Of a DNA stretch of 64,000 nt, positions 3,070 to 64,000 are shown piece by piece. Below the pieces are notes generated by a model. That model searched no databases. It saw only the letters and a list, made by a program, of their open reading frames with translations, and was not told the DNA's origin. The position numbers were made by a program, and so were the translations under genes. The stretch's first letter is position 1. Each line of letters begins with the position of its first letter. The stretch comes from Dehalococcoidia bacterium (GTDB lineage Bacteria > Chloroflexota > Dehalococcoidia > DSTF01 > JACRBR01), in the NCBI GenBank assembly GCA_021462855.1, contig JAJTXQ010000014.1, positions 42,042-106,041 of the forward strand, in the 5' to 3' direction.

Positions 3070-3131
3070 CCGGCGGGTTGGGCAATCTGCGCCGCCGTGC
3101 GAGACTGCACCGGCGCACCGCGCGCCGCATC

Positions 3132-4358
3132 ATGCGCATGCACGCCACCCGTAGCCTCACGCCGCACATCGTGCTGGCGGCGATCGTCGCACTCGCGCTC
3201 GCGGCCGGCGCCGCCGCCGCACGCGCTCTCGCGCTGCCGGACGGCGCGGACGACTACAACTCGCCCGGCTTCATCGTCCGTCACGCCTGGGAGAAGTTCG
3301 CGTACCTCGGCGGCGAGCCGTTCCGCGACGGCCTGAGTCCCGCGGAGGAAGATGCGCGCATCGCCCGCTTCTTCGAGCTCAACGGCCTCATCGCCGACCG
3401 CTCCCGCACCGCCACCGACCCGGAGGCGCAGCCAGATGCCGCGCGCATCGCCGCGGCCGCCGCGGCGACGCTGCGCGCCGAACGCGCGCGCATCGAAAAC
3501 AGCGTCGAGCGCATCATCGAGGGCCGGCTGACGCATGTGCTGAAGGAGCAGGGCCTCACGCGCCGGGTGGGCGGCGACCTCCTCTGGCCGCCGGTTGACA
3601 TTGAATTCGAGGATGCGCCATCGGTGCTCGTCACATCGCCCCGATCGCGGATCGAGAAACGCGGTGAATCGCTCGTGCGCGGCGATCTGCCACCCGAGCG
3701 CATCGAGCGCATCGAAGCGGCGGCCGAGCGCGATGGCGAGACATCGGCGCTCGTCGTCCGCATCGGCGCGATCGCGATGTACCCGTCGATCATCCCGCCG
3801 TCACGCGACTACGCCGGCACGATGGAGACGGCCGCGCACGAGTGGCTGCACCACTACCTGTGGTTCGCGCCGCTGGGACGCCGCTACTACCAGGACGGCC
3901 GACTGACGACGCTCAACGAGACGGTCGCGAACATGGCCGGCCGCGAGCTCGGCGAGGCATTCGTGCGCGCGTACCCGCTCGCCAGAATCGAGGCGAGCGA
4001 CGCGCTCCCGCCGGCCGCGCCCGGTGACACGCCGGCGATCGATTTCACCGCCGAGATGCGCGGCCTGCGCCACGACGTCGAGTCGCTGCTCGCAGCGGGA
4101 CGCATCGAGGACGCCGAGCGGCTGATGGACGAGAAGCGGCGCTTCCTGGCCGGCCACGGATACTACATCCGGAGGCTCAACCAGGCGTACTTCGCGTTCC
4201 ACGGCTCGTACGCCGACACGCCCGGGTCGATCGACCCCATCGGCCCGAAGCTGCAGTCGCTGCGGGAGCGGAGCGCGTCGGTGAGCGCGTTCGTCGAGAC
4301 CGCGCGCGGGTTGACGTCGGAGCGCGATCTCGACGCCGCGCTCGGCGCTACGCCGTGA
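3132..4358 (+). CDS. membrane-anchored putative zinc metallopeptidase (HEXXH) of unknown family
   Basis: N-terminal TM helix (PHIVLAAIVALALAAGAAAA); HEWLHH motif with a downstream NE..E candidate third ligand. Start chosen at ATG 3132 (alternatives TTG 3078, ATG 3138). Confidence 0.45.
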   Translation: MRMHATRSLTPHIVLAAIVALALAAGAAAARALALPDGADDYNSPGFIVRHAWEKFAYLGGEPFRDGLSPAEEDARIARFFELNGLIADRSRTATDPEAQPDAARIAAAAAATLRAERARIENSVERIIEGRLTHVLKEQGLTRRVGGDLLWPPVDIEFEDAPSVLVTSPRSRIEKRGESLVRGDLPPERIERIEAAAERDGETSALVVRIGAIAMYPSIIPPSRDYAGTMETAAHEWLHHYLWFAPLGRRYYQDGRLTTLNETVANMAGRELGEAFVRAYPLARIEASDALPPAAPGDTPAIDFTAEMRGLRHDVESLLAAGRIEDAERLMDEKRRFLAGHGYYIRRLNQAYFAFHGSYADTPGSIDPIGPKLQSLRERSASVSAFVETARGLTSERDLDAALGATP

Positions 4359-6462: not shown

Positions 6463-6472
<10 letters not shown>

Positions 6473-8145
6473 GCCGGGGGCGCCTCCGTCGCCGCGAGCG
6501 CGTCGCTTGCGCCCTTCCGCACCAGCACGTTGAACCATCCACCCTCCGCCGCCGGAGCCACCCGCGGCTCGTACCGCTCCCATAGGTCCGGCATCGCGAT
6601 CATATCGACCAGCGCCGGGATGATCGTCAGCCCTTGCCGGTCGTAATCCGCCTTCCGCGCGGGCTCCGCGGTGATGACATCGATGAGGATGATGATATCA
6701 GGCGACCGGCCGAGCACGTACTCGCTGTCGTATTTCTCGTGCCCGGCGGAAAACGACCCGATCGCCAGGTCGCGGTGCGCGATGTGCTCATCGTTGATGC
6801 CGAGCATGTCGATCGTCGTCAGCCGTGATTCGTAGGCGAGCGCGCCGACCGGGACGGTAGCGATCACCGTGTCGTCCGGCATCGCGTCGCGCAGCCAGCT
6901 GCCCATCGCCTTGCGGTCGGCGACGGCCTCGCGCTCGCCGGTAAAGCCGCGCGCGAAGTCGCTGGTGCCCGACTGCAGCAGGAACGCCATCAGCCCGCCG
7001 ACGATGACCGCCGCCACCAGCGCGAGCGCGCGCGCGTCGCTGCCGCGTTCCGCGTGCGCCAGGCGCAGCAGCGCGACACCGGACGCGGCGACCAGCGCCC
7101 ACGCGAGCGGCTGCACAGGCGCGAAGAAGCGGAACCACACGAGCGAGTCGCCGCCGACGTACACGACGTACCCGAACCACGCCGCCAGCAGCGCGGCGAT
7201 GTACCAGGCGGCGCCGCTCCGCATACGCGTCGCCACGGCGGCGACGGGCGCCAGCAGCAACAGCCACGCCGCGTCCTGCCGCGCGAACTCGGCGAAGTAC
7301 TGCAGGCCGCGGTCGTACTGGTCGACGCCGGTGCCGACCTTCGCGTAGTACGTGTTCGGGAACAGGTGGTCGTAGAACGCGTAGCGCCATCCGAAGTAGA
7401 TACCCCACGTCGCGGCAAAGAGCGCGACCCACGCGAGCAGCCACGCCAGCGACACGGCGAGCGTGCGCAGGCGCCGCTCGCGCCCTTCGCGCGCACGCCA
7501 GCCCGCCTCGATCAACTTCGCGGCGGCTGACACGGCGAACAGCAGCGGCCCCTCCGGACGCGTCATCGATGCGAGCCCCCATGCCGCGCCGGAGAGCGCG
7601 AACGAGCCGTCGCGCTGCTCCCGCAGGTGCAGCAGCGCCGCCCCGAGCGTCAGCAGCGCGAAGAGCGGCACCTCCAGCCCGGCGCTCGTCCACACGCCGA
7701 ACGGCGGCGATGCCGCCAGCAGCAGCACCGCCACGAACCCGGCGATGCGGCCGCTGTCGCCATCGAGCAGGCGCCTCGCCAGCGCATACGTCAGCGCAAG
7801 CGCGGCCACGCCGGCCGCAAAGCCGAGCCACCGCCCCGTCAGCACGATGTCGGCGCCCGCCCGGTGCGCGCCGGCGAGCATCATCACCCAGAGAAAGTTC
7901 GAATACCCCTCGACGTGCTCGCCGCGGTTCCAGACGAGCCCGAATCCCTCCGAAAGGTTGTACGCGTACCGGTACGAGATGTATGCGTCATCGGCCGTGT
8001 AGCGAGCGTATAGCGGGCCGTGCAGGAACAGGATCGCGCCACCCGCCGCCACCGCGCCGACACCGTACTCCGCCGTTAGCCGGACGGCCCACGCCGCCAC
8101 CGCCGCGACGAGCAGCACGGCGATCACCAGCACCGGGAACGTCAT
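6463..8145 (-). CDS. GT-C fold polytopic membrane glycosyltransferase (ArnT/PMT-like, GT39/GT83-like)
   Basis: 560 aa, about 12 predicted TM helices. First periplasmic loop ADDAYISYRYAYNL matches the DxD/RYA motif of ArnT/PMT-type GT-C enzymes. ATG at 8145 lies 6 nt after the HAD hydrolase stop. Confidence 0.55.
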
Positions 8146-29831: not shown

Positions 29832-31979
29832 ATGACAGAACAGCCAGACCCCCCGGCGCCGGACGACGGCGACCCGCCGGCGCGACCGCCGGCGCCGCCC
29901 GGCACGCGCGAGCCGAGCCGCATCCGGCTCCAGCGCGACGGCGGCGCGCTGCCGGACGACGTCGAACAGCACGAGATCGTCACGGGCCGGAAGCCGGGCG
30001 ACCGCTTCGCCCGCCGTGTGCGCGAGGGCGAGCGCCGCTTCCAGCGCGACCAGGAGACCGGCACGATCCGGGCGACCCGCGTGGCGACCGCCCCGCGCAC
30101 CGCCGCCCAGCGCGCGTGGGCGCAGGTGCGCCGCATCGCGATCGGCGCGCCGATCTCGTCCGAGGAGTCGGAGCACCAGCGCCTGCCGAAGCTCAAGGCG
30201 CTCGCCGTCTTCTCGTCTGACGCACTGTCGTCGAGCGCGTATGCCACCGACGAAATCCTGCTCGTGCTGATCGCCGCTGGCACCTCGGCGCTCGTATGGT
30301 CGATCCCGATCGCGCTCGCCATCGCGACGCTGCTCGCCGTTGTGACGTTCTCGTACCGCCAGACAATCCGCGCGTATCCGAGCGGGGGCGGCGCCTACAT
30401 CGTCGCCCGCGAGAACATGGGGGACGTCGCCGGCATCACCGCCGCGGCCGGACTCGCCGTCGGCTATATCCTCACCGTGTCGGTGTCGGTCGCCGCCGGC
30501 GCGGTCGCCGTGGTGTCGGCGTTCCCCGAATTCGACGGGCTGCAGGTGCCGATCTCCGTCGGCGCGGTGGCGATGGTGACGCTGCTCAACCTGCGCGGCA
30601 TCCGGGAGTCCGGCACGATCTTCGCCATCCCGACGTACGGGTTCATCGTCGCCTTTGGCGCGCTTATCGTCGCCGGGTTCATCCGCCTGCTCATCGACCC
30701 GGGGCTCGAGGCGCCGGAACTCGAATCCGCAAAGCACGCCGGCGCGGCGTCGGTCACGGCGTTCCTCGTCTTGCGCGCGTTCTCGTCCGGCGCCGCCGCG
30801 CTGACCGGCGTCGAGGCGATCTCGAACGGCATACCGGCGTTCAAGAAGACCGAGTGGCAGAACGCGCAGATCACGCTCACGTGGATGGCAATCATCCTCG
30901 CGTTCCTCTTCGTCGGCATCACGATCCTGGCGCGCGAGCTCGGCGTGCGTCACTCCGAGGAGGTGTCGGCGCCGGCGCAGGTCGCGCGGACGATCTACGG
31001 CGACAATGTGCTCTTCTACGTGACGCAGGCGTTCACGGCGGGCATCCTGTTCCTGGCCGCGAACACGGTCTACGCGGACTTCCCGCGGCTCGGATCCATC
31101 CTCGCGCGCGACCGCTTCCTGCCGCACCAGTTCCTGTTCCGCGGCGACCGGCTCGCATTCTCGAACGGCATCATCGTGCTGGGACTCGCGGCGTCGTCGC
31201 TGCTGATCCTCTTCAACGCGGACCTGAACCGCTTGATCGCGATGTACGCGTTCGGCGTGTTTATGTCGTTCACGCTGTCGCAGACAGGCATGGTGCTGCA
31301 CTGGCTGCGGCTGAAGGAGCCAGGCTGGAAACGGAGCGCCGTGATCAACACCATCGGCGGCGGCACGACCGGGCTCGTCGCCGTGATCGTCGGCAGCACA
31401 AAGTTCATGGACGGCGCATGGCTCGCCATGATCGGCATCGCCGTGCTGGGGTTGATCCTGTGGTGGATCTACAGCCACAACACGTCGGTGGAAGAGGAGC
31501 TCACCGTGCCGCCCGGCGCGATGCTCCACCAGATGAAGCGACACCCGCAGGCCGTGCTCGTGCCCGTCGACAAGATCAACCGCGCCGTGCTGCGCAACGT
31601 CGACTACGCGCTCACGATCTCGCCGAACGTCCGCGCCATCCATGTCACCGACGACCTGGAAGAGGGCGCGTTGCTCCGCAAACAGTGGGAGCAGTCCGTG
31701 CTCGATGTCGAGCTTGTGATCATCGAGTCGCCGTACCGCTCATTCGTCGCGCCCGTCGTGTCGTATATCGACGCGCTCGACAAGCAGTACCCGGGCGAGT
31801 TCGTGACGGTCGTCCTGCCGGAGTTCCGTACGTTCTGGCCGTGGCACCGGTTCTTGCACAACCAGTCGGCGGCCCGGCTCAAGAAAGCGCTCCTCGGCCG
31901 CCAGAACACGGTGATCGTCGAAGTGCCGTATCACCTCGGGGTCACGGCGCCGGCCGGCGAGCCCGCCCGGCAGACGTGA
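29832..31979 (+). CDS. APC superfamily permease with N- and C-terminal cytoplasmic extensions
   Basis: 715 aa; 12-TM APC core (FSSDALSSSAYATDEILLVL, GGGAYIVARENMG) plus a ~230-aa C-terminal soluble domain. Confidence 0.8.
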   Translation: MTEQPDPPAPDDGDPPARPPAPPGTREPSRIRLQRDGGALPDDVEQHEIVTGRKPGDRFARRVREGERRFQRDQETGTIRATRVATAPRTAAQRAWAQVRRIAIGAPISSEESEHQRLPKLKALAVFSSDALSSSAYATDEILLVLIAAGTSALVWSIPIALAIATLLAVVTFSYRQTIRAYPSGGGAYIVARENMGDVAGITAAAGLAVGYILTVSVSVAAGAVAVVSAFPEFDGLQVPISVGAVAMVTLLNLRGIRESGTIFAIPTYGFIVAFGALIVAGFIRLLIDPGLEAPELESAKHAGAASVTAFLVLRAFSSGAAALTGVEAISNGIPAFKKTEWQNAQITLTWMAIILAFLFVGITILARELGVRHSEEVSAPAQVARTIYGDNVLFYVTQAFTAGILFLAANTVYADFPRLGSILARDRFLPHQFLFRGDRLAFSNGIIVLGLAASSLLILFNADLNRLIAMYAFGVFMSFTLSQTGMVLHWLRLKEPGWKRSAVINTIGGGTTGLVAVIVGSTKFMDGAWLAMIGIAVLGLILWWIYSHNTSVEEELTVPPGAMLHQMKRHPQAVLVPVDKINRAVLRNVDYALTISPNVRAIHVTDDLEEGALLRKQWEQSVLDVELVIIESPYRSFVAPVVSYIDALDKQYPGEFVTVVLPEFRTFWPWHRFLHNQSAARLKKALLGRQNTVIVEVPYHLGVTAPAGEPARQT

Positions 31980-39734: not shown

Positions 39735-41777
39735 ATGAGACCCAAGGGCCGATTCCTCGCCATCCTCGCCGTGATGGCATCGCTCCTGCTCACGCTGGGC
39801 GTAACCGTGAGCTGCAGCGACGACGACAACGGCAACGGCAACGGATCCGCCGGGAGCGGCGATTTGGACGCGATTGCCCAGGAGCGCGGGCTTTCGCCGG
39901 ATGACATGCGGCACGCGCTCCAGAGCTTCGTCCCGCCCGGCAAGTTCGACGACTACGTGCTGCTGGCCTCGGGCGGCCACTCCGGGCAGATGCTCGTGAT
40001 CGGCATGCCGTCGATGCGCATCCTCAAGGTCATCGGCGTGTTCACCCCCGAGCCGTGGCAGGGTTACCTCTACGGTTCCGACTGGGGCGAGGTCGCGAAC
40101 GTGGACGCTGACCAGGCCAACCCGCCAACCGAGCTGAGCTGGGGCGACACGCACCACCCCGCAATCAGCGAGACCAACGGCGAGTACGACGGCCGGTTCG
40201 TGTACATCCAGGACCGCGCGAACGGGCGGGTTGGATTCGTCGACCTGCGCGACTTCCGCACGAAGCAGGTCCTCGCCATCCCGAACATCCAGACGTCCCA
40301 CGGCGGCATGTTCGTGACGCCGAACTCCGAGTACGTCCACGTCTCCTCGAAGTTCCCGGAGGTGTGGCCCGAGGGAGCGTATGCGGACCTCACCGAGTAC
40401 AAGGAGAAGTACCACAGCGTCTCGACGTGGCTGAAGATCGACCAGACCACGGGCAAGCTCAACCTCGCCGAGAGCTTCCAGGTCGAGATCCCGCCCTACA
40501 CGCAGGACCTCGCCGACGCGGGCAAGAAAGTCAGCGACGGCTGGGGCTTCATCGGCTCGTTCAACACCGAGATGGCCACCGGCGGCAACATGGAAGGTGG
40601 CCAGTCGATGGAGGCGGGCGCGTCGAAGAACAACTTCGACTACCTGCACGCCATCAACTGGAAGAAGGCCGAGGAAGTCGCGAAGGCCGGCAAGGTCGAG
40701 GAGATGAACGGCATCCGCGTCATCCGCCTCCAGACCGCGATCGAAGAAGGCATCCTCTACCTGATCCCCGAGCCCAAGAGCCCCCACGGCATCGACGTGG
40801 ACCCCTCGGGCCGGTACATGGTCGTCGGTGGCAAGCTTGACCCGCACGTCACCGTCTACGACTTCAACAAGATGCAGACCGCCATCGAGAACAAGGACTT
40901 CGAGGGGAACGACGTCTTCGGCGTGCCGATCCTCAAGTTCGACTCGGTGATGTCCGGCCAGGTCGAAGTCGGCGCGGGCCCGCTGCACACGCAGTTCGAC
41001 AGCAAGGGCCACGGCTACACGTCGCTCTTCCTGGAGAGCGCCGTCGCCAAGTTCACGCTCGGCGACGACGTCGTGCAGACCGGCGAGACGCCGTACACGC
41101 TCGTCGACAAGGTCGCGGTCAACTACAACATCGGCCACCTCGCGATCACCGAGGGCGACACGACGACGCCAGACGACAAGTACCTCGTCGCGCTGAACAA
41201 GTGGTCGATCGACCGGTTCCTGACCGTCGGTCCGCTGCACCCGCAGAACTTCCAGCTGATCGACCTCAAGGGAGGCGACGGCGGGAAGATGGAACTCATC
41301 TCCGACATGCCGATCGGCGTCGGCGAGCCGCACTACGTGCAGATCATCAAGGCCGACAAGATCAAGGCGCTCGATGTCTACCCGGCCGGCACCGACTCAG
41401 CGACGATGCAGAAGAGCGAGTTCGCCATCGAGGGTGGCCAGGAGAAGACGGAGCGCAACGGCAACACCGTCGAGGTGTGGATGTCCGCGCAGCGGAGCCA
41501 CTTCACCCCCGACATCATCCGCGTGAAGCAGGGCGACACCGTCAAGCTCCACATCACGAACGTCGAACAGACGAAGGACGCCACGCACGGGTTCGGCATC
41601 GCCGACTACAACATCCAGGCGAGCCTGGAGCCGGGCGAAGTGTCGAACTTCGAGTTCACCGCAGACAAGTCGGGCGCGTTCAACTTCTACTGCACGGAGT
41701 TCTGCTCGGCGCTGCACCTGGAAATGGCGGGCTGGCTGCTCGTCGAGCCCGCGGGCTCGGCCATGGCCGCCCCGTAG
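39735..41777 (+). CDS. nosZ: nitrous-oxide reductase, clade II (Sec/lipoprotein-type) NosZ
   Basis: 680 aa; non-Tat lipoprotein signal (single R; LLLTLGVTVSC); beta-propeller CuZ domain with conserved His ligands; C-terminal CuA cupredoxin motif HGFGI...FYCTEFCSALHLEMAG. Confidence 0.93.
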   Translation: MRPKGRFLAILAVMASLLLTLGVTVSCSDDDNGNGNGSAGSGDLDAIAQERGLSPDDMRHALQSFVPPGKFDDYVLLASGGHSGQMLVIGMPSMRILKVIGVFTPEPWQGYLYGSDWGEVANVDADQANPPTELSWGDTHHPAISETNGEYDGRFVYIQDRANGRVGFVDLRDFRTKQVLAIPNIQTSHGGMFVTPNSEYVHVSSKFPEVWPEGAYADLTEYKEKYHSVSTWLKIDQTTGKLNLAESFQVEIPPYTQDLADAGKKVSDGWGFIGSFNTEMATGGNMEGGQSMEAGASKNNFDYLHAINWKKAEEVAKAGKVEEMNGIRVIRLQTAIEEGILYLIPEPKSPHGIDVDPSGRYMVVGGKLDPHVTVYDFNKMQTAIENKDFEGNDVFGVPILKFDSVMSGQVEVGAGPLHTQFDSKGHGYTSLFLESAVAKFTLGDDVVQTGETPYTLVDKVAVNYNIGHLAITEGDTTTPDDKYLVALNKWSIDRFLTVGPLHPQNFQLIDLKGGDGGKMELISDMPIGVGEPHYVQIIKADKIKALDVYPAGTDSATMQKSEFAIEGGQEKTERNGNTVEVWMSAQRSHFTPDIIRVKQGDTVKLHITNVEQTKDATHGFGIADYNIQASLEPGEVSNFEFTADKSGAFNFYCTEFCSALHLEMAGWLLVEPAGSAMAAP

Positions 41778-57100: not shown

Positions 57101-57910
57101 ATGCACGAACAGATCCTGTACGAAAAGAGCGATGGCGTGGCGGTCATCACGCTCAACCGCCCGGAGCGCATGAACGCCTTCACCGACGTGATGATCCGCG
57201 AGTGGGCTGCCGCGCTCGAGGACGCGCGCCTCGACCCCGCCGTGCGCGTCGTCGTGGTTACGGGCGCCGGGCGCGGGTTCTGCGCCGGCGCCGACCTGCG
57301 CGGCGGCGCCGGCGTCGGCGAGGCGGCGAGCGGCGAGCGGCCGCCGGCGGCCTCCGAGCGCCGCAACTGGCTGCGCGATGGCGTGCACTACGTCCCGCGG
57401 GCCGTGCAGCTGCTGGACAAGCCGTACATCGCCGCAGTCAATGGCGCGGCCGTCGGCGCCGGCATGGACATGGCGACCATGGCAGACCTGCGGTTCGCGT
57501 CCGACGCGGCGAAGTTCGCGATGTCGTACGTGAAGGTCGGGCTCGTGCCGGGCGACGGCGGCTGCTACACGCTGCCCCGCGTCGTCGGGCTGGCGAAGGC
57601 GCTGGAGCTGATCTGGACCGGCGACTTCGTCGACGCCGCCGAAGCGCTCCGCATCGGGTACGTGTCGCGCGTCGTCCCGGGCGATCAGCTCATGGACGAG
57701 ACGCTGGCGTTCGCCCGCCGCCTGGCGGCAGGGCCCGCCGTGGCGATGCAACTCGCGAAGGGGCTGGTGTACCGCGGCCTGAACGCCGACTGGCACGAGG
57801 CATTCGAACAGGCGGGCATTGCCATGTCGATCGCGCAGTCGACCGAGGACGCCCGCGAGGGCCCGCGCGCCTTCGTCGAGAACCGCCCGCCAAAGTTCCA
57901 GGGGCGCTGA
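57101..57910 (+). CDS. enoyl-CoA hydratase/isomerase (crotonase) family
   Basis: ITLNRPERMNAF and GAGRGFCAGADL oxyanion-hole motifs; GAGGAGG SD. Confidence 0.85.
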   Translation: MHEQILYEKSDGVAVITLNRPERMNAFTDVMIREWAAALEDARLDPAVRVVVVTGAGRGFCAGADLRGGAGVGEAASGERPPAASERRNWLRDGVHYVPRAVQLLDKPYIAAVNGAAVGAGMDMATMADLRFASDAAKFAMSYVKVGLVPGDGGCYTLPRVVGLAKALELIWTGDFVDAAEALRIGYVSRVVPGDQLMDETLAFARRLAAGPAVAMQLAKGLVYRGLNADWHEAFEQAGIAMSIAQSTEDAREGPRAFVENRPPKFQGR

Positions 57911-58052
57911 CCGCGGCACGCGCCCGCCTGGTCCGATCGCACCATTTCGGCGCGCCGCACCCGCGCGCTACGCTGTCCTCGGTAAAGTTCTCGTAACTTG
58001 ACCGTGCCGCGCGCCGGAGCGTACGGTACATGAAACTTAGCCGGAGGCTACG

Positions 58053-59405
58053 ATGCGGGTGCGTGTGTTCGAAGTCCTGGAGGAGCGCGGCCAGAAGCAA
58101 CGCTGGCTCCTCGCCGAGCTCGAACGCCGCGGCTACCGCATCAGCGAGGGCTACCTCTCCCAGATCAAGGCCGGCTCGAAGCAGCCCGGCCGCCAGTTCA
58201 TCGACGCGGTGTGCGACATCATGGGCATGCCGGAGCACGAGCTGTTCATCACGCAACGCGAAGGAGGAGCGAGCAGCATGGCAGGAAAGACCGCCGCAAC
58301 GACACCGGCACGAGCGCGGAAGAAGGACGGCAAGGGCAAGATCAACGTCGCCATCATTGGCGTCGGGAACTGCGCGTCGTCGCTCGTGCAGGGCCGCTAC
58401 TTCTACCGCGACGCGCGCGATGGCGAGGTCATCCCCGGCATCATGCACGCCACGCTCGGCGGCTATCACATCAGCGACATCAACTTCGTCGCGGCGATCG
58501 ACATCGACGCCAACAAGGTCGGCAAAGACCTCTCCGAGGCGGTCTTTACCGAGCCCAACAACACCTTCAAGTTCAGCGATGTGCCCCACCAGGGCGTCCG
58601 CGTGTCACGCGGGATGACGCACGACGGCCTCGGCAAGTACCTCTCGACGGTCATCACCAAGGCCACCGGCCCCACCGATGACATCGTCCGCCTGCTGAAG
58701 GAGACCGAGACCGACGTCGTCGTCAGCTACCTCCCCGTCGGCTCCGAGGAAGCGACGAAGTGGTACGTCGAGCAGGTGCTCGCGGCCGGCTGCGGTTTCG
58801 TCAACTGCATCCCGGTGTTCATCGCGCGGGATCACTACGGCTACTGGCCAAAGCGCTTCCGCGAGGCCGGCGTGCCGATCGTCGGCGACGACATCAAGTC
58901 GCAGGTCGGCGCGACTATCGTCCACCGGGTGCTGACGCGCCTGTTCCGCGAGCGCGGCGTCCGCCTCGACCGCACGTACCAGCTGAACTTCGGTGGCAAC
59001 ACCGACTTCCTCAACATGCTCGAGCGCGAGCGCCTCGAGTCGAAGAAGATCTCGAAGACCGGCGCCGTCACTTCGCAACTCGACTACGAACTGCCCGCGT
59101 CCGACGTCCACGTCGGTCCCTCGGACCACGTGCCGTGGCTGCAGGACCGCAAGTGGTGCTACATCCGCATGGAGGGCACGACGTTCGGCAACGTCCCGCT
59201 CAACGCCGAGGTCAAGCTCGAGGTCTGGGACAGCCCGAACTCCGCCGGCGTCGTCATCGATGCCATCCGGTGCTGCAAGATCGCCATGGACCGCGGCATC
59301 GCCGGTCCGCTCGAAGGGCCATCGGCCTACTTCATGAAATCGCCGCCGACGCAGTATGCTGACGATGTCGCGCGCGACATGGTGGAGCAGTTCGTAGCGG
59401 GATAA
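58053..59405 (+). CDS. ino1: myo-inositol-1-phosphate synthase (bacterial/archaeal type) with an in-frame N-terminal XRE-type HTH extension; probable internal MIPS start at 58278
   Basis: Residues 1-75 look like a helix-turn-helix ([28 protein letters not shown]). From M76 (MAGKTAA...[19 protein letters not shown]) it is a canonical NAD-binding MIPS. GGAGG SDs precede both ATG 58053 and ATG 58278; no stop lies between them. Confidence 0.8.
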
Positions 59406-59412
59406 AGGAATC

Positions 59413-60339
59413 GTGCTCGATCGGATCGTCTACTGGCTCTTCCGGCTGGCGATCCTCGTGACACGGCCGCTGCCCCTGCGGCTCGGATACTGGTTCGGCG
59501 AGCGAGTGGCGCTGCTCTGCTACTGGCTGGTCTCCCCGCGTCAGCGGCGCGCCCTCAACGCCAACCTCGCCCACGTGCTCCGGAGCGACGATCACCGCTA
59601 CGTGGACGCCGTCGCCCGGCGCAGCTTTCGCAACTTCGGCAAGTACGTCATCGACTTCATCCACTACCCGCTCATGACGCGCGGCGAGGTGCGGCGGCGC
59701 CTCAAGTTCGACCAGTTCCCGGAACTCGACGAGGCGGTCGCCGCCGGCCGCGGCGTGCTCATCGTCACGATCCACTTCGGCAACTGGGACCTCGGCGCGG
59801 CCGCGCTGGCGGCGCACGACTATCCAATCAACGCCATCGCCGAGTCCTTCCGCTACCGGCCGATGGACGACCTCGTGCAGGGTTCGCGCGCGAAGCTCGG
59901 GATGCGCGTCATCGGCCACGACCGGCTCGGGCCGACGGTATTTCGCGCGCTGCGCAACGGCGAGCTGCTCGCCATGCTCGTCGACGTGACCAACGACGCA
60001 CACCACCGGCTCGAGGTCGACTTCTTCGGCGCGCCGGCGCTCGTCTCGTCCGCACCGGCGCGCATCGCGCTGCGCACCAACGCGTGGGTAGTGCCCGCCG
60101 TCGTCATCCGCGGCCCGGACGACGATCTCGACATCCGCCCCATCATCGACACGTCGCTCGGCGGCTTTGCTCCGACCGGAGACGAGCCGCGCGACATCGC
60201 CGAGCTCACACGGCTGATCATGGCATCCCTCGAGCGGACGATCCGCCGCTACCCGGAGCAGTGGTTCATCTTCCGGCGCCTCTGGGGCCGCGCGGCCGCG
60301 CCCGCGCGCCGCGCCGGGGCCATCGCGGAGGGTGCGTGA
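59413..60339 (+). CDS. lysophospholipid acyltransferase (LPLAT/HtrB-PatA-like) 1
   Basis: LPLAT superfamily pattern (FGNWDLG, HHRLE region). Located between ino1 and a PimA-like GT4, as patA sits beside pimA in mycobacteria. Confidence 0.7.
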   Translation: MLDRIVYWLFRLAILVTRPLPLRLGYWFGERVALLCYWLVSPRQRRALNANLAHVLRSDDHRYVDAVARRSFRNFGKYVIDFIHYPLMTRGEVRRRLKFDQFPELDEAVAAGRGVLIVTIHFGNWDLGAAALAAHDYPINAIAESFRYRPMDDLVQGSRAKLGMRVIGHDRLGPTVFRALRNGELLAMLVDVTNDAHHRLEVDFFGAPALVSSAPARIALRTNAWVVPAVVIRGPDDDLDIRPIIDTSLGGFAPTGDEPRDIAELTRLIMASLERTIRRYPEQWFIFRRLWGRAAAPARRAGAIAEGA

Positions 60340-61277
60340 TTAGCGTCCCGTTCCCCCGGCCGCGACTGTGGAAGTACTACCTGATGGTCATCGTCATCAA
60401 CACGATCGGCCGCATGCCGCTGCGATGGCGCTACGGCATCTCGCGCATCGTCAGCGACCGCATCTACGACTGGCGCAAGTCGGTGCGCGAGGCGACGCGC
60501 AGCAACGTGCGCCACGTGCTCGGTCCCGGCGCGAGCGAGGATGAGGTCGACCGCATCGCTCGCCAGTGCGCGCGCAACACGGGCCGCTACTACGCCGACG
60601 TCGTCGGCATGCACCGCATCAACGTGCGCCGCTTCTTCGAAAATGACCTGGTGCTCGAAGGCCTCGAGCATGTCACGCAGGCGCAGGCGCGAGGCCACGG
60701 CGTGGTGCTCGCGTCGGCGCACTACGCCAACCCCGAGTTCGCCGTCCAGGCGCTCGCCGCGGCCGGTATCGAGGTGTTCGCGCTCGTCGAGCCGCTGAAC
60801 CCGCCAGAGCTCGGCCGCCTGATGTGGAACCTGCGCAACGTCCACGGCCACCGCTACGAGCCGGTGAGCTTCAGCGCCGTGAAGCACGCGATGGAGTGGC
60901 TGCGCAACTGCGGCGTCGTCGCGATCCTGGTCGACCGCGACATCCAGAAGCGCGGGATCGAAATCGAGTTCTGCGGCGCGCCAGCGCGCTTCCCCACCGG
61001 CGCCATCGACCTGGCGCTGCGCACGAACGCGGTCGTCGTCCCGGGCTGGGTGCGCCGCATCGGCGAGTTCAAGGTGCACGCACGCCTCGGCCCGGCAATG
61101 CCGCTCGTGCGCACTGGCAACAACGAGGAGGACGTGCGCGTCAACACGGCGTCGCTGCTCGCCCTCTTCGAGCAGCACCTGAAGTCCGACCCGGGCCAGT
61201 GGAGCGTGCTCGACCGCATCTGGCCCGACGACGCGTCCGCGACGCCCGCGCCGTCCGAGACCGCCGCCACGCACTGA
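60336..61277 (+). CDS. lysophospholipid acyltransferase (LPLAT/HtrB-PatA-like) 2, paralog
   Basis: Same fold signature (ASAHYANPE, VDRDIQKRG). GTG 60336 overlaps the upstream TGA (GTGA). Confidence 0.7.
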   Translation: MISVPFPRPRLWKYYLMVIVINTIGRMPLRWRYGISRIVSDRIYDWRKSVREATRSNVRHVLGPGASEDEVDRIARQCARNTGRYYADVVGMHRINVRRFFENDLVLEGLEHVTQAQARGHGVVLASAHYANPEFAVQALAAAGIEVFALVEPLNPPELGRLMWNLRNVHGHRYEPVSFSAVKHAMEWLRNCGVVAILVDRDIQKRGIEIEFCGAPARFPTGAIDLALRTNAVVVPGWVRRIGEFKVHARLGPAMPLVRTGNNEEDVRVNTASLLALFEQHLKSDPGQWSVLDRIWPDDASATPAPSETAATH

Positions 61278-61361
61278 CGCGCCCCGCCGCGCGCAACATC
61301 GTTACAATGCGGCATCGCTGCGGAACCGGCGCGCTACCGCGCGGCGCGGCGACGTGACGAC

Positions 61362-62156
61362 GTGGGCACAGCCGACCTCCACATCCACACGCGCTACGGC
61401 GACGGCATGGCCACCGTCCCGGAACTGCTCCGTTATGTCGCGCAGCGCGGCGGCATCGATGTCATCGCCGTCACCGAGCACGACACCCTGCGCGCCGCCG
61501 GCGAAGCCCGCGAGATGCATGCGCGCGGCGATTACCCCTTCGGGCTGGTCACCGGCATGGAAGTGACCACGCTCGACGGCCACCTCCTCGCGCTGTTCAT
61601 CGACGAGCCCGTGCCGAGCTTCCGCCGCATGGAGGAGACGCTCGTCGCCATCCACCGCCTCGGCGGCCTGGCGGTCGTGCCCCACCCGTTGTCGTGGCTC
61701 ACCCGCAGCGTCAGCGCGAAGGTGCTCGACCGCATCGCCGCCATCGGCAACGACGCCGTGCACTTCGACGCGATCGAGGAGTACAACCTCTCCCCGGCCG
61801 GCCGTGTGACGTCGGCCCGCGTGCGCCGCCTCAACCGCGAGCGATTCCACCTCCCGGCGGTCGGGTCGAGCGACGCGCACTTCCTGCAGGCGATCGGCAG
61901 CGCCCTCACGTCCTTCGAGGGCACGACGCCCGACGACCTGCGCCGTGCCATCGCGGCCGGCACGACCGCGGGGGCCGCGGGGCGCGCGCCCCGCATGTCC
62001 GAGCTGGGATACCGCAACATCGCGTTGCAGCAGTGGCGCGGCATGATGGCGACGCCGCGCAACATGGGCTGGGCGCCGACGATCCGCAGCTTCATCATCA
62101 GCCGCGCGCGTCACCGCCCCGCGCCCGGCGCCGCCCCGGAGGATCCCGCCCGGTGA
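61362..62156 (+). CDS. PHP-domain metal-dependent phosphoesterase
   Basis: ADLHIHTRYGDG (HxH) and VTEHD motifs of the polymerase/histidinol-phosphatase (PHP) fold; GTG start. Confidence 0.65.
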   Translation: MGTADLHIHTRYGDGMATVPELLRYVAQRGGIDVIAVTEHDTLRAAGEAREMHARGDYPFGLVTGMEVTTLDGHLLALFIDEPVPSFRRMEETLVAIHRLGGLAVVPHPLSWLTRSVSAKVLDRIAAIGNDAVHFDAIEEYNLSPAGRVTSARVRRLNRERFHLPAVGSSDAHFLQAIGSALTSFEGTTPDDLRRAIAAGTTAGAAGRAPRMSELGYRNIALQQWRGMMATPRNMGWAPTIRSFIISRARHRPAPGAAPEDPAR

Positions 62157-63313
62157 AGGTCGCGCTCGTTTCGCCCTACGACTGGTCGGTGTCCGGCGGC
62201 GTGAACAACCACATCGCGCCCCTCGCGGCGGAGTTCGTGCGCCTCGGCCACGAGCCGCACATCGTCGCCGCCGGCGCGAAGGCCGCCAAGCCCGGCATCT
62301 GCCCCATCACGACGATCGGGCGGCCGATCCCGCTGCGCGTCAGCGGCTCCGTGGCGCGCATCACGCTGTCCCTGCGCGTCGCCGGCCGCGTGCGCAAGTT
62401 CCTCGAGGAGCACGACTTCGACATCGTGCACGTGCACGAGCCGTTCATGCCGCAGCTGCCAATCCAGTTCCTGCGCTACTCGACTGCGGTGAACGTCGGC
62501 ACGTGGCATGCGGCGCGCGAGTCGAACTTCGTCTACCTCTACGGCCGCCGCCTGATCAAGCGCTGGGCCACCAAGCTCGATGGCAAGATCGCCGTCTCCT
62601 CGGCCGCGGACAAGCACGTGCAGAAGTACTTTCCCGGCTACTACAACATCATCCCGAACGGCGTCGATGTCGAGCACTTCGCACGCGTCGCCGCCCCGCT
62701 GCCGGAGTTCGAGGACGGCAAGCTCAACGTGTTGTTCGTCGGGCGCCCGGAGAAACGGAAGGGGCTGAAGTACCTGGTCCGCGCGTTCGTCGGTGTGCAG
62801 CGCGAGGTCCCCGACACGCGCCTGATCGTCGTCGGCGCCGGCAAGTTCGACCGGTACGAGGCGGCCGTCCGCAACGCCCGGCTGCAAAACGTGCGCTTCC
62901 GCGCCTACGTGCCGTTCGATGAGTTGCCGCGCTACCCCCATACGGCGCACGTCTTCTGCGCGCCCAATACCGGCTTCGAGAGCCAGGGCATCGTCCTGCT
63001 GGAGGCGATGGCGGCCGGCATGCCGATCGTCGCGTCGAACATCGACGGGTTCGCTGGCGTGCTCACGCACGGCGTCGAAGGCCTGCTCGTCACGCCCGAG
63101 GATGCGCCGGCGCTCGCCAGCGCGCTCGTCGATCTGCTGCGCGATCCCGCGCGCCGCCAGGCGATGGGCGAGCGAGGCCGCGAGCGGGCGCAGCACTACA
63201 GCTGGGACCGAGTCAGTCAGCGCGTGCTGTCCTACTACGAGCGGCTCATCTACGAGCGCCGCATGCTCGAGCGCGAGCAGGGCGCCGCCGCCGCCGATCC
63301 CGTCGTCAGCTAG
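62153..63313 (+). CDS. GT4 family glycosyltransferase, PimA-like (phosphatidylinositol mannosyltransferase-like)
   Basis: VKVALVSPYDWSVSGGVNNHI N-terminus and EAMAAGMPIVASNIDG (E-x7-E region) are GT-B GT4 hallmarks. GTGA overlap with the PHP gene. Confidence 0.8.
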   Translation: MKVALVSPYDWSVSGGVNNHIAPLAAEFVRLGHEPHIVAAGAKAAKPGICPITTIGRPIPLRVSGSVARITLSLRVAGRVRKFLEEHDFDIVHVHEPFMPQLPIQFLRYSTAVNVGTWHAARESNFVYLYGRRLIKRWATKLDGKIAVSSAADKHVQKYFPGYYNIIPNGVDVEHFARVAAPLPEFEDGKLNVLFVGRPEKRKGLKYLVRAFVGVQREVPDTRLIVVGAGKFDRYEAAVRNARLQNVRFRAYVPFDELPRYPHTAHVFCAPNTGFESQGIVLLEAMAAGMPIVASNIDGFAGVLTHGVEGLLVTPEDAPALASALVDLLRDPARRQAMGERGRERAQHYSWDRVSQRVLSYYERLIYERRMLEREQGAAAADPVVS

Positions 63314-63326
63314 CGTCGGCCGCGCA

Positions 63327-64000
63327 TCAGCCGCACGAGGTCCCGTGCTGCCGCACCGCGATGCGTATGTCGAGCGTGTTGACGCTGTTGTCGCCATTCA
63401 CGTCGTACACGGCGGCGACTGCGCCAACGTTCTTCGCGATCATTGCGAGGTCAAGGACATTCACCCGCCGGTCGATGTTCACATCGGCGCATGCGCGCGT
63501 GAGCGGCGCGTATCCCAGCGCGGCAAGCGCGTCCGCGATCGCGGCGCCCCCGTTGGCGTTCGGGTGGACTCCGTCGTAGACGTAGCCGAGCATCCATGGG
63601 TCGTCGGCGCCGCTCGGGCCGTTGAAGATCGCGTGCACATTCGCCACGCGCATGTCTCGCGTCGTGGCCGCCGACGCGTGGATGTGGTCGTTCATCGCGA
63701 GCAGGTACGAATTCAGCAGTTCGAACGGCGGATCTTCGCCGGCCTGATCGAACGTGGGAACGGCATAGTACAGGTCGAAGGCACGGATGATCGTACCGGG
63801 CGCGCGTAGCGCATCGATCTCGCCGAGGATCGCATCCCAGTTCGCCTGGAATCCGGCGACCACCGCACGAAGGCAATCCTGGCCATCCACCCCGCCACAG
63901 GTCCCGTCAACATAGGAAGCACGGGCCGGCCAGAAGTCGTTGATCCCGACCTGCAGCGTCACGATCTCGGCGCCCGCAAGCGCGTCCCTCCCCGCGCCGT
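63327..64000 (-). CDS. SGNH/GDSL-type hydrolase with C-terminal dockerin-like repeats; 5' end outside window
   Basis: C-terminal DVNIDRRVNVLDLAMIAK and DVNGDNSVNTLDIRIAV match the tandem dockerin repeat (DxNxDGxVNxxDxxxL). The upstream part resembles an SGNH esterase (DGVHPN). The reading frame is open to the window edge. Confidence 0.55.
   Translation of the reverse strand, partial: GAGRDALAGAEIVTLQVGINDFWPARASYVDGTCGGVDGQDCLRAVVAGFQANWDAILGEIDALRAPGTIIRAFDLYYAVPTFDQAGEDPPFELLNSYLLAMNDHIHASAATTRDMRVANVHAIFNGPSGADDPWMLGYVYDGVHPNANGGAAIADALAALGYAPLTRACADVNIDRRVNVLDLAMIAKNVGAVAAVYDVNGDNSVNTLDIRIAVRQHGTSCG

Follow-up and report, generated by a model that had tools for sequence, protein, structure and literature searches.

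Bioinformatic and comparative genomic analyses of a 64 kb stretch of Dehalococcoidia DNA (hereafter, the window) confirmed a tightly packed operon of five genes on the + strand, at positions 58053-63313, that encodes an inositol phosphate synthase (Ino1), two LPLAT acyltransferases, a PHP phosphoesterase and a PimA-like GT4 mannosyltransferase. All five ORFs were found where a first-pass annotation of this DNA had placed them, and profile and structure-sequence searches matched the families that it had proposed. The same annotation had reported that the window carries no CDP-alcohol phosphatidyltransferase; indeed, neither a six-frame search of the 64 kb for the motif D-G-x2-A-R...G-x3-D-x3-D nor a tblastn search of the 64 kb with nine Chloroflexota PI-phosphate synthase (PIPS) proteins, which gave nothing below E = 0.4, detected one. 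The spacer between ino1 and LPLAT1 is 7 nt long, and the LPLAT1/LPLAT2 and PHP/GT4 junctions are 4-base overlaps (GTGA in each case). The five-gene block recurs in the same order in dozens of species-level genomes in which the flanking genes are unrelated, and therefore the arrangement is not due to chance. Only these five genes (six in relatives) are conserved in the cluster.

The first ORF (58053-59405) contains a myo-inositol-1-phosphate (inositol-3-phosphate) synthase core (58278..59405), recognized by PF01658 (E = 1.4e-36, 125 bits) and by TIGR03450 (540 bits over residues 97-448 and model positions 1-355, short of the actinobacterial equivalog cut-off of 638). The core is preceded by a 75 amino acid XRE-like helix-turn-helix extension (58053..58277), in frame and with no intervening stop codon, which has weak matches to HTH_31 (E = 0.004) and ClgR (E = 2e-4); an in-frame extension of this type is also present in 12 window-type and four six-gene-type loci. 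Direct reading of the sequence showed a Shine-Dalgarno-like GAAGGAGGAG (58260-58269) just upstream of the internal ATG, and relatives keep the corresponding internal Met, preceded by E-G-G or E-E-G.

The second and third genes encode distinct LPLAT paralogs. LPLAT1 (59413..60339, + strand) is a PatA-like protein with the motif HFGNWD (PF03279, E = 7e-41, 141 bits), while LPLAT2 (60336..61277, + strand), whose start overlaps the LPLAT1 stop and whose gene call matches that at locus L003, harbors the motif HYANPE (PF03279, E = 9.5e-30, 104 bits). For both proteins the top NCBIfam model is the PIM acyltransferase PRK07920, with scores (127.6 bits for LPLAT1 and 125.3 for LPLAT2) that do not reach the PatA equivalog cut-off of 209 bits, and the closest solved structure is PatA (5f2t; E = 1.3e-14 and 1.9e-11, respectively). 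The H-x4-D/E catalytic motif is present in both, and HFGNWD of LPLAT1 aligns to HSGNWD of PatA. Nearly all of the 68 scored orthologs of LPLAT1 have the HxGxWD motif, and the H-x4-E motif of LPLAT2, mostly in the form HxxxPE, is kept in 69 scored orthologs.

The fourth gene (61362..62156, + strand) encodes a PHP/PHP_C metal-dependent phosphoesterase, a candidate PI-phosphate (PIP) phosphatase, identified by PF13263 (45.8 bits; cut-off 21.3) and by a CehA/McbA domain (72.6 bits). The metal-site residues D5, H9, D14, H40, E67, H74, H108, D171 and H173 are invariant among 92 homologs, and the H7 metal-ligand position is H or Q (Q in 29 of the 92). An AF2 model of the protein, which has a cytoplasmic-type N-terminus, folds into a PHP barrel (core pLDDT ~90; Foldseek probability 1.0 to PHP structures) and is nearest to TM0559, RNase AM and Cv1693. 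Our searches found no characterized close homolog, and the protein falls far under the equivalog cut-offs for RNase AM, pAp phosphatase and cyclic phosphate diphosphodiesterase (for the RNase AM/3',5'-bisphosphonucleotide phosphatase equivalogs, NF047791 scores 51.9 against 375 and NF041577 38.8 against 400). With the TrpH/YciV group (RNase AM, 7ug9/9etk; Cv1693, 2yb1) it has in common the fold, the PHP_C segment and the metal-ligand pattern HxH, D, H, E, H, H, DxH; it differs from this group in that the similarity covers only ~85 N-terminal residues (residues 3-85 in alignments with the RNase AM and Cv1693 models), with TM-scores of ~0.5, and in its lipid-pathway gene context and lineage-specific C-terminal tail. 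This basic, aromatic tail (residues 206-252; nine K/R, one D/E and four aromatics) would suit an anionic membrane surface.

The last gene (62153..63313, + strand), whose start overlaps the PHP stop, encodes a GT4 protein with both GT-B domains (PF13439, 73 bits; PF00534, 121 bits; PF13692, 115 bits; all over the cut-offs). It matches Mycobacterium smegmatis PimA (4n9w/2gej) at full length (residues 1-365, 195 bits, E ~ 2e-56), and the next matches, to 6kih, PimB' (3okc) and MshA (3c48), reach 58-83 bits over the C-terminal half alone. Among characterized proteins it is therefore closest to PimA, from end to end, and not to any other GT4. In the alignment, it keeps the equivalents of PimA Y9, G15-G16, H118, R196, K202 and E274, which we take to be the catalytic and GDP-mannose-binding residues, and the segment AGRVRKF stands opposite HRKVKKW of PimA, in the basic amphipathic helix.

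To determine the distribution of the cluster, we compared 80 species-level GTDB loci gathered by PHP-specific peptide patterns, a set that consequently represents this orthologous group only. A PimA-like GT4 gene lies directly 3' of the PHP gene in 70 of 73 evaluable loci and an LPLAT gene directly 5' in 65 of 76; hence the PHP gene has not been conserved on its own, apart from the inositol genes, in line with the association put forward in the first-pass annotation. Outside the clade of the window, a PIPS-like gene is located immediately 3' of the GT4 gene (45/49 evaluable loci), so that the synthase missing from the window does belong to the system in relatives, and the ancestral operon can be read as ino1-LPLAT-LPLAT-PHP-pimA-pips. 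The product of this sixth gene is PIPS-like rather than PgsA-like (131-145 bits with NF045883 versus 27-31 with the pgsA model), and among PDB entries it is closest to M. tuberculosis PgsA1 (6h53; 3e-25).

PIPS is detached from the operon solely in the window's own clade, where none of the 17 fully evaluable loci has a PIPS gene within 10 kb. A further member of this clade (L012) keeps the order GT4-PIPS-thioredoxin-like, in agreement with an independent contig (L097; 98% DNA identity), and related GC-rich metagenomic contigs carry "solo" PIPS genes together with the ancestral downstream neighbors, which suggests that the operon was split rather than that PIPS was lost. In Thermomicrobiales-type loci the core is reduced to PHP-GT4-PIPS, with no ino1 or LPLAT gene nearby, which ties the PHP protein to the synthase and mannosyltransferase pair. 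In the sister clade there is an additional gene of ~520 codons, whose product weakly matches GT87 (the PimE family), in some cases along with a PMT_2 GT-C gene; such genes would be expected if PIMs were elongated. This putative operon for mannosylated, acylated inositol lipids is conserved across the phylum Chloroflexota, and PI has been described as a major polar lipid in a cultured Chloroflexota (PMC12453558).

The closest known system is the early PIM operon of mycobacteria and corynebacteria (Rv2612c pgsA1 - Rv2611c patA - Rv2610c pimA - Rv2609c), in which the same PIPS, PatA-type LPLAT and PimA-type GT4 families are co-transcribed (PMC3229680), likewise with an extra hydrolase-type gene beside pimA. 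The Chloroflexota operon differs, apart from the phylum, in having an HTH-fused ino1 inside the operon, two LPLATs (below the PatA equivalog cut-off) instead of one, and a PHP protein in place of the LemA/NUDIX protein. The first-pass annotation had rightly listed ino1, the second acyltransferase and the PHP gene as additions relative to mycobacteria, but its view that the gene order mirrors the mycobacterial one does not really hold, as PIPS comes at the end of the ancestral operon instead of at its beginning, and is detached in the window. In Bacteroides thetaiotaomicron, MIPS, PIPS and a dedicated PIP phosphatase (BT_1525) are clustered in BT_1522-BT_1526, and the pathway proceeds via PIP (PMC9246714); BT_1525 is a member of the PgpA family, unrelated to PHP, and the cluster leads to inositol sphingolipids, without PimA or PatA. 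In mycobacteria, where the enzyme for the PIP-to-PI step was still unidentified in July 2026, EphE (Rv3670) has been proposed as the PIP phosphatase and is predicted in complex with PimA (bioRxiv 10.64898/2026.07.15.738315). EphE is an alpha/beta-hydrolase encoded away from the mycobacterial operon. Its predicted link to PimA has a parallel in the Chloroflexota operon, where translation of the PimA-like gene is coupled to that of the PHP gene.

We propose, with a probability of roughly 55%, that the five genes constitute an operon for the early, cytoplasmic steps of the synthesis of PIM-type glycolipids, with the PHP protein as the PIP phosphatase. Ino1 would convert glucose-6-phosphate to inositol phosphate, which PI-phosphate synthase, whose gene came sixth in the ancestral operon and in this clade presumably lies elsewhere in the genome, would join to CDP-diacylglycerol to form PI-phosphate. 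The PHP phosphoesterase would then remove the inositol phosphate group from PI-phosphate to yield PI, the PimA-like GT4 would add mannose from GDP-mannose, and the two LPLAT paralogs would add acyl chains, LPLAT1 (HxGNWD) through a PatA-like action on mannose O-6 and LPLAT2 (HxxxPE) at another site, which may be inositol O-3 (as in Ac2PIM). To our knowledge, the enzyme of this second PIM acylation has never been identified.

Gene context and active-site integrity make the PHP protein a credible candidate for the PI-phosphate phosphatase, and dephosphorylation of PIP to PI is the one pathway step for which no operon-encoded enzyme is otherwise assigned. Both outcomes that the first-pass annotation had named as refuting the idea, a PHP gene conserved apart from the inositol genes and a lack of PI-phosphate synthase, were contradicted by the comparison of related loci. 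PHP enzymes comprise diesterases and nucleases besides monoesterases. Among the structural relatives, Cv1693 (2yb1) is a phosphatase that takes the 3'-phosphate off 3',5'-bisphosphonucleotides; the phosphate removed there, like the one in PIP, is a monoester on a ring with another phosphate close by, and for this reason we counted this activity in favor of PIP as the PHP substrate.

It is also conceivable, although we consider it rather unlikely, that PIM-type lipids are made but that the PHP protein is an accessory nucleotide or nucleotide-sugar hydrolase, an inositol-monophosphate phosphatase or a scaffold for PimA. Dephosphorylation of PIP would then fall to an enzyme encoded elsewhere, for instance one of the PgpA or alpha/beta-hydrolase type, and an accessory hydrolase would have its counterpart in the NUDIX domain of Rv2609c, whose gene comes last in the mycobacterial pimA operon. 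The nearest solved structures fit such a role, since they act on nucleotides or RNA (RNase AM, Cv1693) or lack a known function (TM0559, BVU_3505). So does the mycobacterial hydrolase-domain protein beside pimA, whose role is unclear and which is predicted to be a scaffold (bioRxiv 10.64898/2026.07.15.738315), as well as the fact that the Bacteroides PIP phosphatase (PMC9246714) and the mycobacterial candidate (bioRxiv 10.64898/2026.07.15.738315) belong to other families. However, the conservation of the metal ligands, invariant but for H/Q at H7, points to a real catalyst rather than a scaffold, and an inositol-1-phosphate phosphatase would compete for substrate with PIPS, yet both are co-transcribed in the 45 of 49 loci mentioned above. 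The smallest conserved core, PHP-GT4-PIPS, also argues against an accessory role, as does the precomputed Pfam annotation of the neighboring genes, in which no PgpA-like or other phosphatase gene appears in the clusters examined.

A phosphate-free product in the clade that lacks an adjacent PIPS is improbable, and we rank it below the reading of the PHP protein as a PIP phosphatase. Here, Ino1 would be followed by PHP action on inositol phosphate (or mannosyl-inositol phosphate), mannosylation by the GT4 and acylation by the two LPLATs, one acyl chain being placed on mannose and one on inositol, to give an acylated mannosyl-inositol glycolipid akin to the propionibacterial diacyl inositol mannoside. 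Five genes would just suffice for this product, and PIPS is absent both from the window and from all 17 fully evaluable window-type loci. In addition, the propionibacterial lipid, studied by Prottey and Ballou in 1968 and by Shaw and Dinglinger in 1969, reportedly has mannose on inositol O-2 and an acyl chain on mannose O-6, which is the regiochemistry of PimA and PatA. Nevertheless, all five proteins have their orthologs in the PIPS-containing operons, the GT4 retains the basic segment aligned with the membrane- and PI-binding helix of PimA, L012 and L097 keep the GT4-PIPS-thioredoxin-like order, and the solo PIPS genes on related contigs speak for a split instead of a loss.

Finally, MshA takes inositol phosphate as its acceptor, and we know of no identified partner phosphatase for it. 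An MshA-like GT4 acting on inositol phosphate, with the PHP protein as a sugar-inositol-phosphate phosphatase and a soluble or thiol-type inositol glycoside as the product, would accord with the presence of ino1, a GT4 and a phosphatase in one operon, but is very improbable in view of the full-length PimA match (MshA covers the C-terminal donor domain only, with 58 bits in PDB, 1e-14, and 81 bits against the TIGR03449 cut-off of 462), the two lipid acyltransferases, the adjoining PIPS in relatives and the absence of MshB, MshC and MshD genes from the cluster.

Returning to the PIM-type pathway, the broader proposal that the PHP protein is the PI-phosphate phosphatase of a Chloroflexota-wide pathway of this kind, and LPLAT2 the enzyme of the second PIM acylation, has in our judgment about even odds. 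If it is true, the PHP protein would represent a third non-homologous solution to PIP dephosphorylation, the other two being the PgpA-like BT_1525 and, as proposed, EphE.

Our analysis of the window, whose G+C content is ~69% throughout, identified five consecutive ORFs at 58053-63313 (+). The first (58053-59405, +) is ino1, encoding a myo-inositol-1-phosphate synthase (PF01658, E=1.4e-36; TIGR03450, 540 bits over residues 97-448). It is followed by two ORFs, at 59413-60339 (+) and 60336-61277 (+), which encode members of the lipid A/LPLAT acyltransferase family (PF03279), here LPLAT1 and LPLAT2. For both, the top NCBIfam model was PRK07920, a phosphatidylinositol mannoside (PIM) acyltransferase model (128 and 125 bits, respectively, both below its cut-off of 209 bits), and the top solved structure was PatA (5f2t; E=1e-14 and E=2e-11). 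The fourth ORF (61362-62156, +) encodes a protein with a PHP/PHP_C domain match, and the fifth (62153-63313, +) a GT4 glycosyltransferase whose closest solved relative, M. smegmatis PimA (4n9w/2gej), aligns with it over the full length (195 bits, E~2e-56). The gap between ino1 and LPLAT1 is 7 nt, LPLAT1/LPLAT2 and PHP/GT4 each share a GTGA overlap, and 84 nt lie between LPLAT2 and PHP; a promoter and terminator scan of 57700-63600 gave nothing above shuffled-sequence expectation. A six-frame search of the 64 kb yielded no full match to the CDP-alcohol phosphatidyltransferase motif, and tblastn of nine Chloroflexota PI-phosphate synthase (PIPS) proteins against the window returned nothing below E=0.4. 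The first-pass annotation had described this five-gene cluster, with the same gene identities and without a CDP-alcohol phosphatidyltransferase, and the ORFs, profiles, structures, motif and tblastn searches bear it out in every particular.

The operon is flanked by an enoyl-CoA hydratase gene upstream and a convergent GDSL-type lipase/acylhydrolase gene downstream (63327-63962, -). The latter lies 13 nt past the GT4 stop and runs off toward the window end; the complete gene is found in a related locus (L003, 4175-5107). Its product has a C-terminal dockerin-like domain, dockerin domains being unusual in such a context. Elsewhere in the window, a 680 amino acid NosZ-like protein (39735-41777, +) combines a nitrous-oxide-reductase propeller repeat with a cupredoxin domain, an indication that the genome of this Chloroflexota bacterium has the capacity to reduce N2O. 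Two further ORFs with high GC3 and no Pfam match encode proteins of 560 amino acids, with a hydrophobic, membrane-like N-terminus (6463-8145, -), and 426 amino acids (3078-4358, +).

The N-terminus of Ino1 carries an in-frame XRE-like HTH domain of ~70 amino acids (58053-58300), also observed in related loci L007-L019, L025, L087, L089, L091 and L093. This fusion is conserved in the window clade and in a sister clade, whose loci encode a PHP protein 55-60% identical to that of the window. We know of no described HTH-MIPS fusion. An internal Met immediately past the HTH is conserved, and the preceding E-G-G or E-E-G codons spell a Shine-Dalgarno-like GAAGGAGG, so both the DNA-binding fusion and plain Ino1 may be made. 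Two Ino1 forms would be suggestive of operon autoregulation.

LPLAT1 and LPLAT2 belong to distinct lineages, both of them conserved: LPLAT1 orthologues keep an HxGxWD motif (compare HSGNWD in PatA), and LPLAT2 orthologues keep an H-x4-E motif, mostly as HxxxPE. We infer that LPLAT1 is the PatA equivalent. The second PIM acyltransferase has, to our knowledge, not yet been assigned to any enzyme, and LPLAT2 is a candidate for it. This protein may attach a further acyl chain, with inositol O-3 as one possible site by analogy with Ac2PIM2, the structure of which has been described (PMC3229680).

The PHP protein has 1665 homologues in a large protein collection, the best 120 of which are 71-100% identical and come from Chloroflexota or Dehalococcoidia wherever the organism is named. 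The five genes recur, in unchanged order and between unrelated flanks (biotin carboxylase upstream, histidine operon downstream), on a Chloroflexota contig of 168 kb (L001). A scan with the PHP alignment over one genome per GTDB species gave at least 80 loci, and all those listed belong to Chloroflexota sensu lato (Dehalococcoidia, Tepidiformaceae, Thermoflexus, Anaerolineaceae, Thermomicrobiales, Limnocylindria, and Dormiibacterota). As the loci were gathered by PHP-specific peptide patterns, the sample describes the PHP orthologous group only. The window proteins were mapped onto these loci to count neighbours. Among the loci listed, the PimA-like GT4 lies directly 3' of PHP in 18/18 window-type loci (PHP at least 61% identical to that of the window) and 52/55 others, an LPLAT lies directly 5' in 18/19 and 47/57, and two LPLATs lie upstream in 17/18 and 38/50. 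With GT4 and LPLAT neighbours recurring in this way, the PHP gene of this orthologous group is not conserved independently of the inositol genes, a possibility that had been raised against its role in the pathway. The cluster is thus a genuine feature, with phylum-wide conservation.

In more distant relatives, the GT4 is followed ~10-250 nt later, on the same strand, by a gene that contains the complete CDP-alcohol motif (45 of the 49 evaluable loci listed). These genes encode proteins of ~200 amino acids that are PIPS-like rather than PgsA-like, scoring 131-145 bits with the NCBIfam PIPSynth and archaetidylinositol-phosphate synthase models versus 27-31 bits with pgsA. In the PDB they match M. 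tuberculosis PgsA1 best (6h53, E=3e-25), with the PIPS structures of Renibacterium and M. kansasii next. This recurrent position indicates that the ancestral operon was ino1-LPLAT-LPLAT-PHP-pimA-pips. With PIPS in sixth place of that operon, the earlier reading, which had noted the synthase as absent from the window, is sharpened. All seven examined matches of PIPS-query protein searches lie in operons with PIPS adjacent, and in Thermomicrobiales-type loci the conserved core is PHP-GT4-PIPS alone. Two PIPS genes are interrupted. In L086 (CAYWCZ010000040.1, 4690-4770), ~75 bp encoding the conserved EEELLIFAAVVASFLVSY stretch are reversed inside the gene, splitting it, and the inverted segment is bounded by short G+C-rich inverted repeats; this inversion could be an assembly artefact or real. 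In L085, an in-frame TAG at a conserved Ser position (4110-4114; AALAG*IMVSY) led the gene caller to split PIPS into products of 128 and 77 amino acids, and could reflect a pseudogene, a strain variant or a sequencing error.

In the sister clade the six-gene operon has a fixed context, with nusA-ylxR-infB-rbfA-truB-DUF5679 upstream and a thioredoxin-like gene, a gene of ~520 codons, a Peptidase_MA_2 gene and prfB downstream. The ~520 amino acid product encoded after PIPS and the thioredoxin-like gene has a weak GT87 (PimE-family) match in two loci (L095 and L096), and its homologues in the remaining sister-clade loci have no recorded Pfam match. In two sister-clade loci (L091, 5660-8092; L095, 5635-8082), LPLAT2 and PHP are separated by a gene for an 810 amino acid PMT_2 GT-C glycosyltransferase. 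The PMT_2 and GT87-like genes hint at periplasmic glycolipid elongation. A different extra gene, encoding a Meth_synt_2-like protein, lies between the LPLATs and PHP in L087 (5992-7155).

None of the 17 fully evaluable loci listed whose PHP is 61-82% identical to that of the window has PIPS within 10 kb. The exception among window-type loci is L012, a contig that ends inside a PIPS gene directly after GT4. Its PIPS N-terminal fragment shares 90% identity with the L093 PIPS, and the other five proteins of the two loci share 46-72%. As the sole window-type PIPS locus, with a discordant PIPS identity, it was suspected of being a chimeric contig end; this was ruled out, since the GT4-PIPS-thioredoxin-like junction is also present, at 98.4% DNA identity, on a second, independent contig from JGI (L097), and is thus real. 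Recombination and unusually strong constraint are possible readings of the discordance.

A metagenome scan with the L012-type PIPS gave ~25 "solo" PIPS loci (55-65% identical to the query, 66-70% G+C; including L110, L117, L120, L125, L127-L134, L138, L142, and L150), with no ino1, LPLAT, PHP or GT4 within 8 kb. Downstream, most loci examined still have the GT87-like gene, Peptidase_MA_2 and prfB; upstream, many have genes for a membrane protein of ~200 amino acids and a 201 amino acid protein with the motif LPPGQKLTDGWPVLHYGGIP. Most simply, these loci would reflect lineages in which the five-gene block relocated, with PIPS staying behind at the ancestral site. None of the ~25 solo loci could be linked to the window genome. 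An exact-sequence look-up of the window PHP protein gave no match, and that of its 100%-identical database entry (P0001) led to 8.5-kb Logan contigs only. An amino-acid permease gene ~2 kb upstream of some solo PIPS genes has its homologue in the window at 29832-31979 (68% identity), which was rejected as a link because synteny ends there and permeases are paralogue-rich. A tblastx comparison of a related locus with the window gave compositional noise only in this 69% GC DNA.

Across 92 PHP homologues, D5, H9, D14, H40, E67, H74, H108, N158, S170, D171 and H173 are invariant, and position 7 is H in 62 and Q in 29; the conserved residues make up the full ligand set of the PHP trinuclear metal site. 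An AlphaFold2 model shows a PHP barrel (mean pLDDT 78.5; core ~90; residues 227-264 below 50), and the closest solved structures are TM0559, the RNase AM PHP domain, BVU_3505, BAD_1165 and Cv1693, a 3',5'-nucleotide bisphosphate phosphatase (TM-scores ~0.5-0.6). Since sequence similarity to solved structures is limited to the first ~85 residues and equivalog scores are far under the cut-offs, function is not transferable by homology. Neither a signal peptide nor a membrane segment is present at the N-terminus. In a protein that is near neutral as a whole, residues 206-252 contain nine K/R, one D/E and four aromatics; the hydrophobic moment of this tail is not exceptional, charge and aromatic content alone standing out. 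Such a composition would suit an anionic membrane surface.

Bacterial PI synthesis proceeds via PI-phosphate (PIP). In the proposed pathway, Ino1 would form inositol phosphate, PIPS would produce PIP, PHP, as a metal-dependent phosphoesterase, would convert PIP to PI, the PimA-like GT4 would add the O-2 mannose, and the PatA-type LPLAT would acylate mannose O-6. Every early PIM step is covered by an operon enzyme except PIP-to-PI dephosphorylation, and PHP, whose gene is translationally coupled to the PimA-like gene, is the single hydrolase of the operon without an assigned step. One step without an enzyme and one spare metal-dependent phosphoesterase lead us to propose PHP as the PIP phosphatase, with a probability of about 0.5-0.55. 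The first-pass annotation had nominated PHP for this missing activity, and the step-by-step gap and the operon context support that nomination as a hypothesis.

Somewhat unlikely, in our judgement, is that PHP is an accessory hydrolase, a scaffold or an Ins-P phosphatase and that the true PIP phosphatase is unlinked; the NUDIX/LemA protein beside mycobacterial pimA would be a comparable case. It is more doubtful that the clade without adjacent PIPS makes phosphate-free diacyl mannosyl-inositol, as propionibacteria do. MshA-like chemistry on inositol phosphate is highly improbable, as an MshA/mycothiol-type GT4 is contradicted by the full-length PimA match at 195 bits, PimB' and MshA aligning to the C-terminal donor domain only (58-74 bits). 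In the alignment, GT4 and PimA are identical at the equivalents of Y9, the GG motif, H118, R196, K202 and E274, residues with functional roles in the PimA structures, and a basic helix, HRKVKKW, lies opposite AGRVRKF.

A PIP phosphatase is established genetically only in Bacteroides, where it is the PgpA-like BT_1525, the deletion mutant of which accumulates PIP (PMC9246714); in the Chloroflexota operon, in contrast, the candidate belongs to the PHP family. The mycobacterial enzyme was termed "as-yet unidentified" in a July 2026 preprint, which nominates the alpha/beta-hydrolase EphE from a predicted PimA complex and the PIM-defective phenotype of the mutant (10.64898/2026.07.15.738315). Our literature search, with thin coverage of subscription journals, found no paper on the operon or on a PHP-type PIP phosphatase. 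The pathway itself is known; what is new here is its occurrence in a different phylum, with ino1 fused to an HTH domain, an additional acyltransferase and, for the PIP phosphatase step, a candidate from a new enzyme family.

These results indicate that PIM-like glycolipids, usually counted as a hallmark of actinobacteria, probably also occur widely in Chloroflexota. In the cultured Chloroflexota Dictyobacter, PI is among the major polar lipids (PMC12453558). The PHP protein offers, in a second large phylum, a candidate phosphatase encoded within the operon, between the acyltransferases and PimA and beside PIPS in relatives, and makes a long-standing gap in the pathway directly testable.
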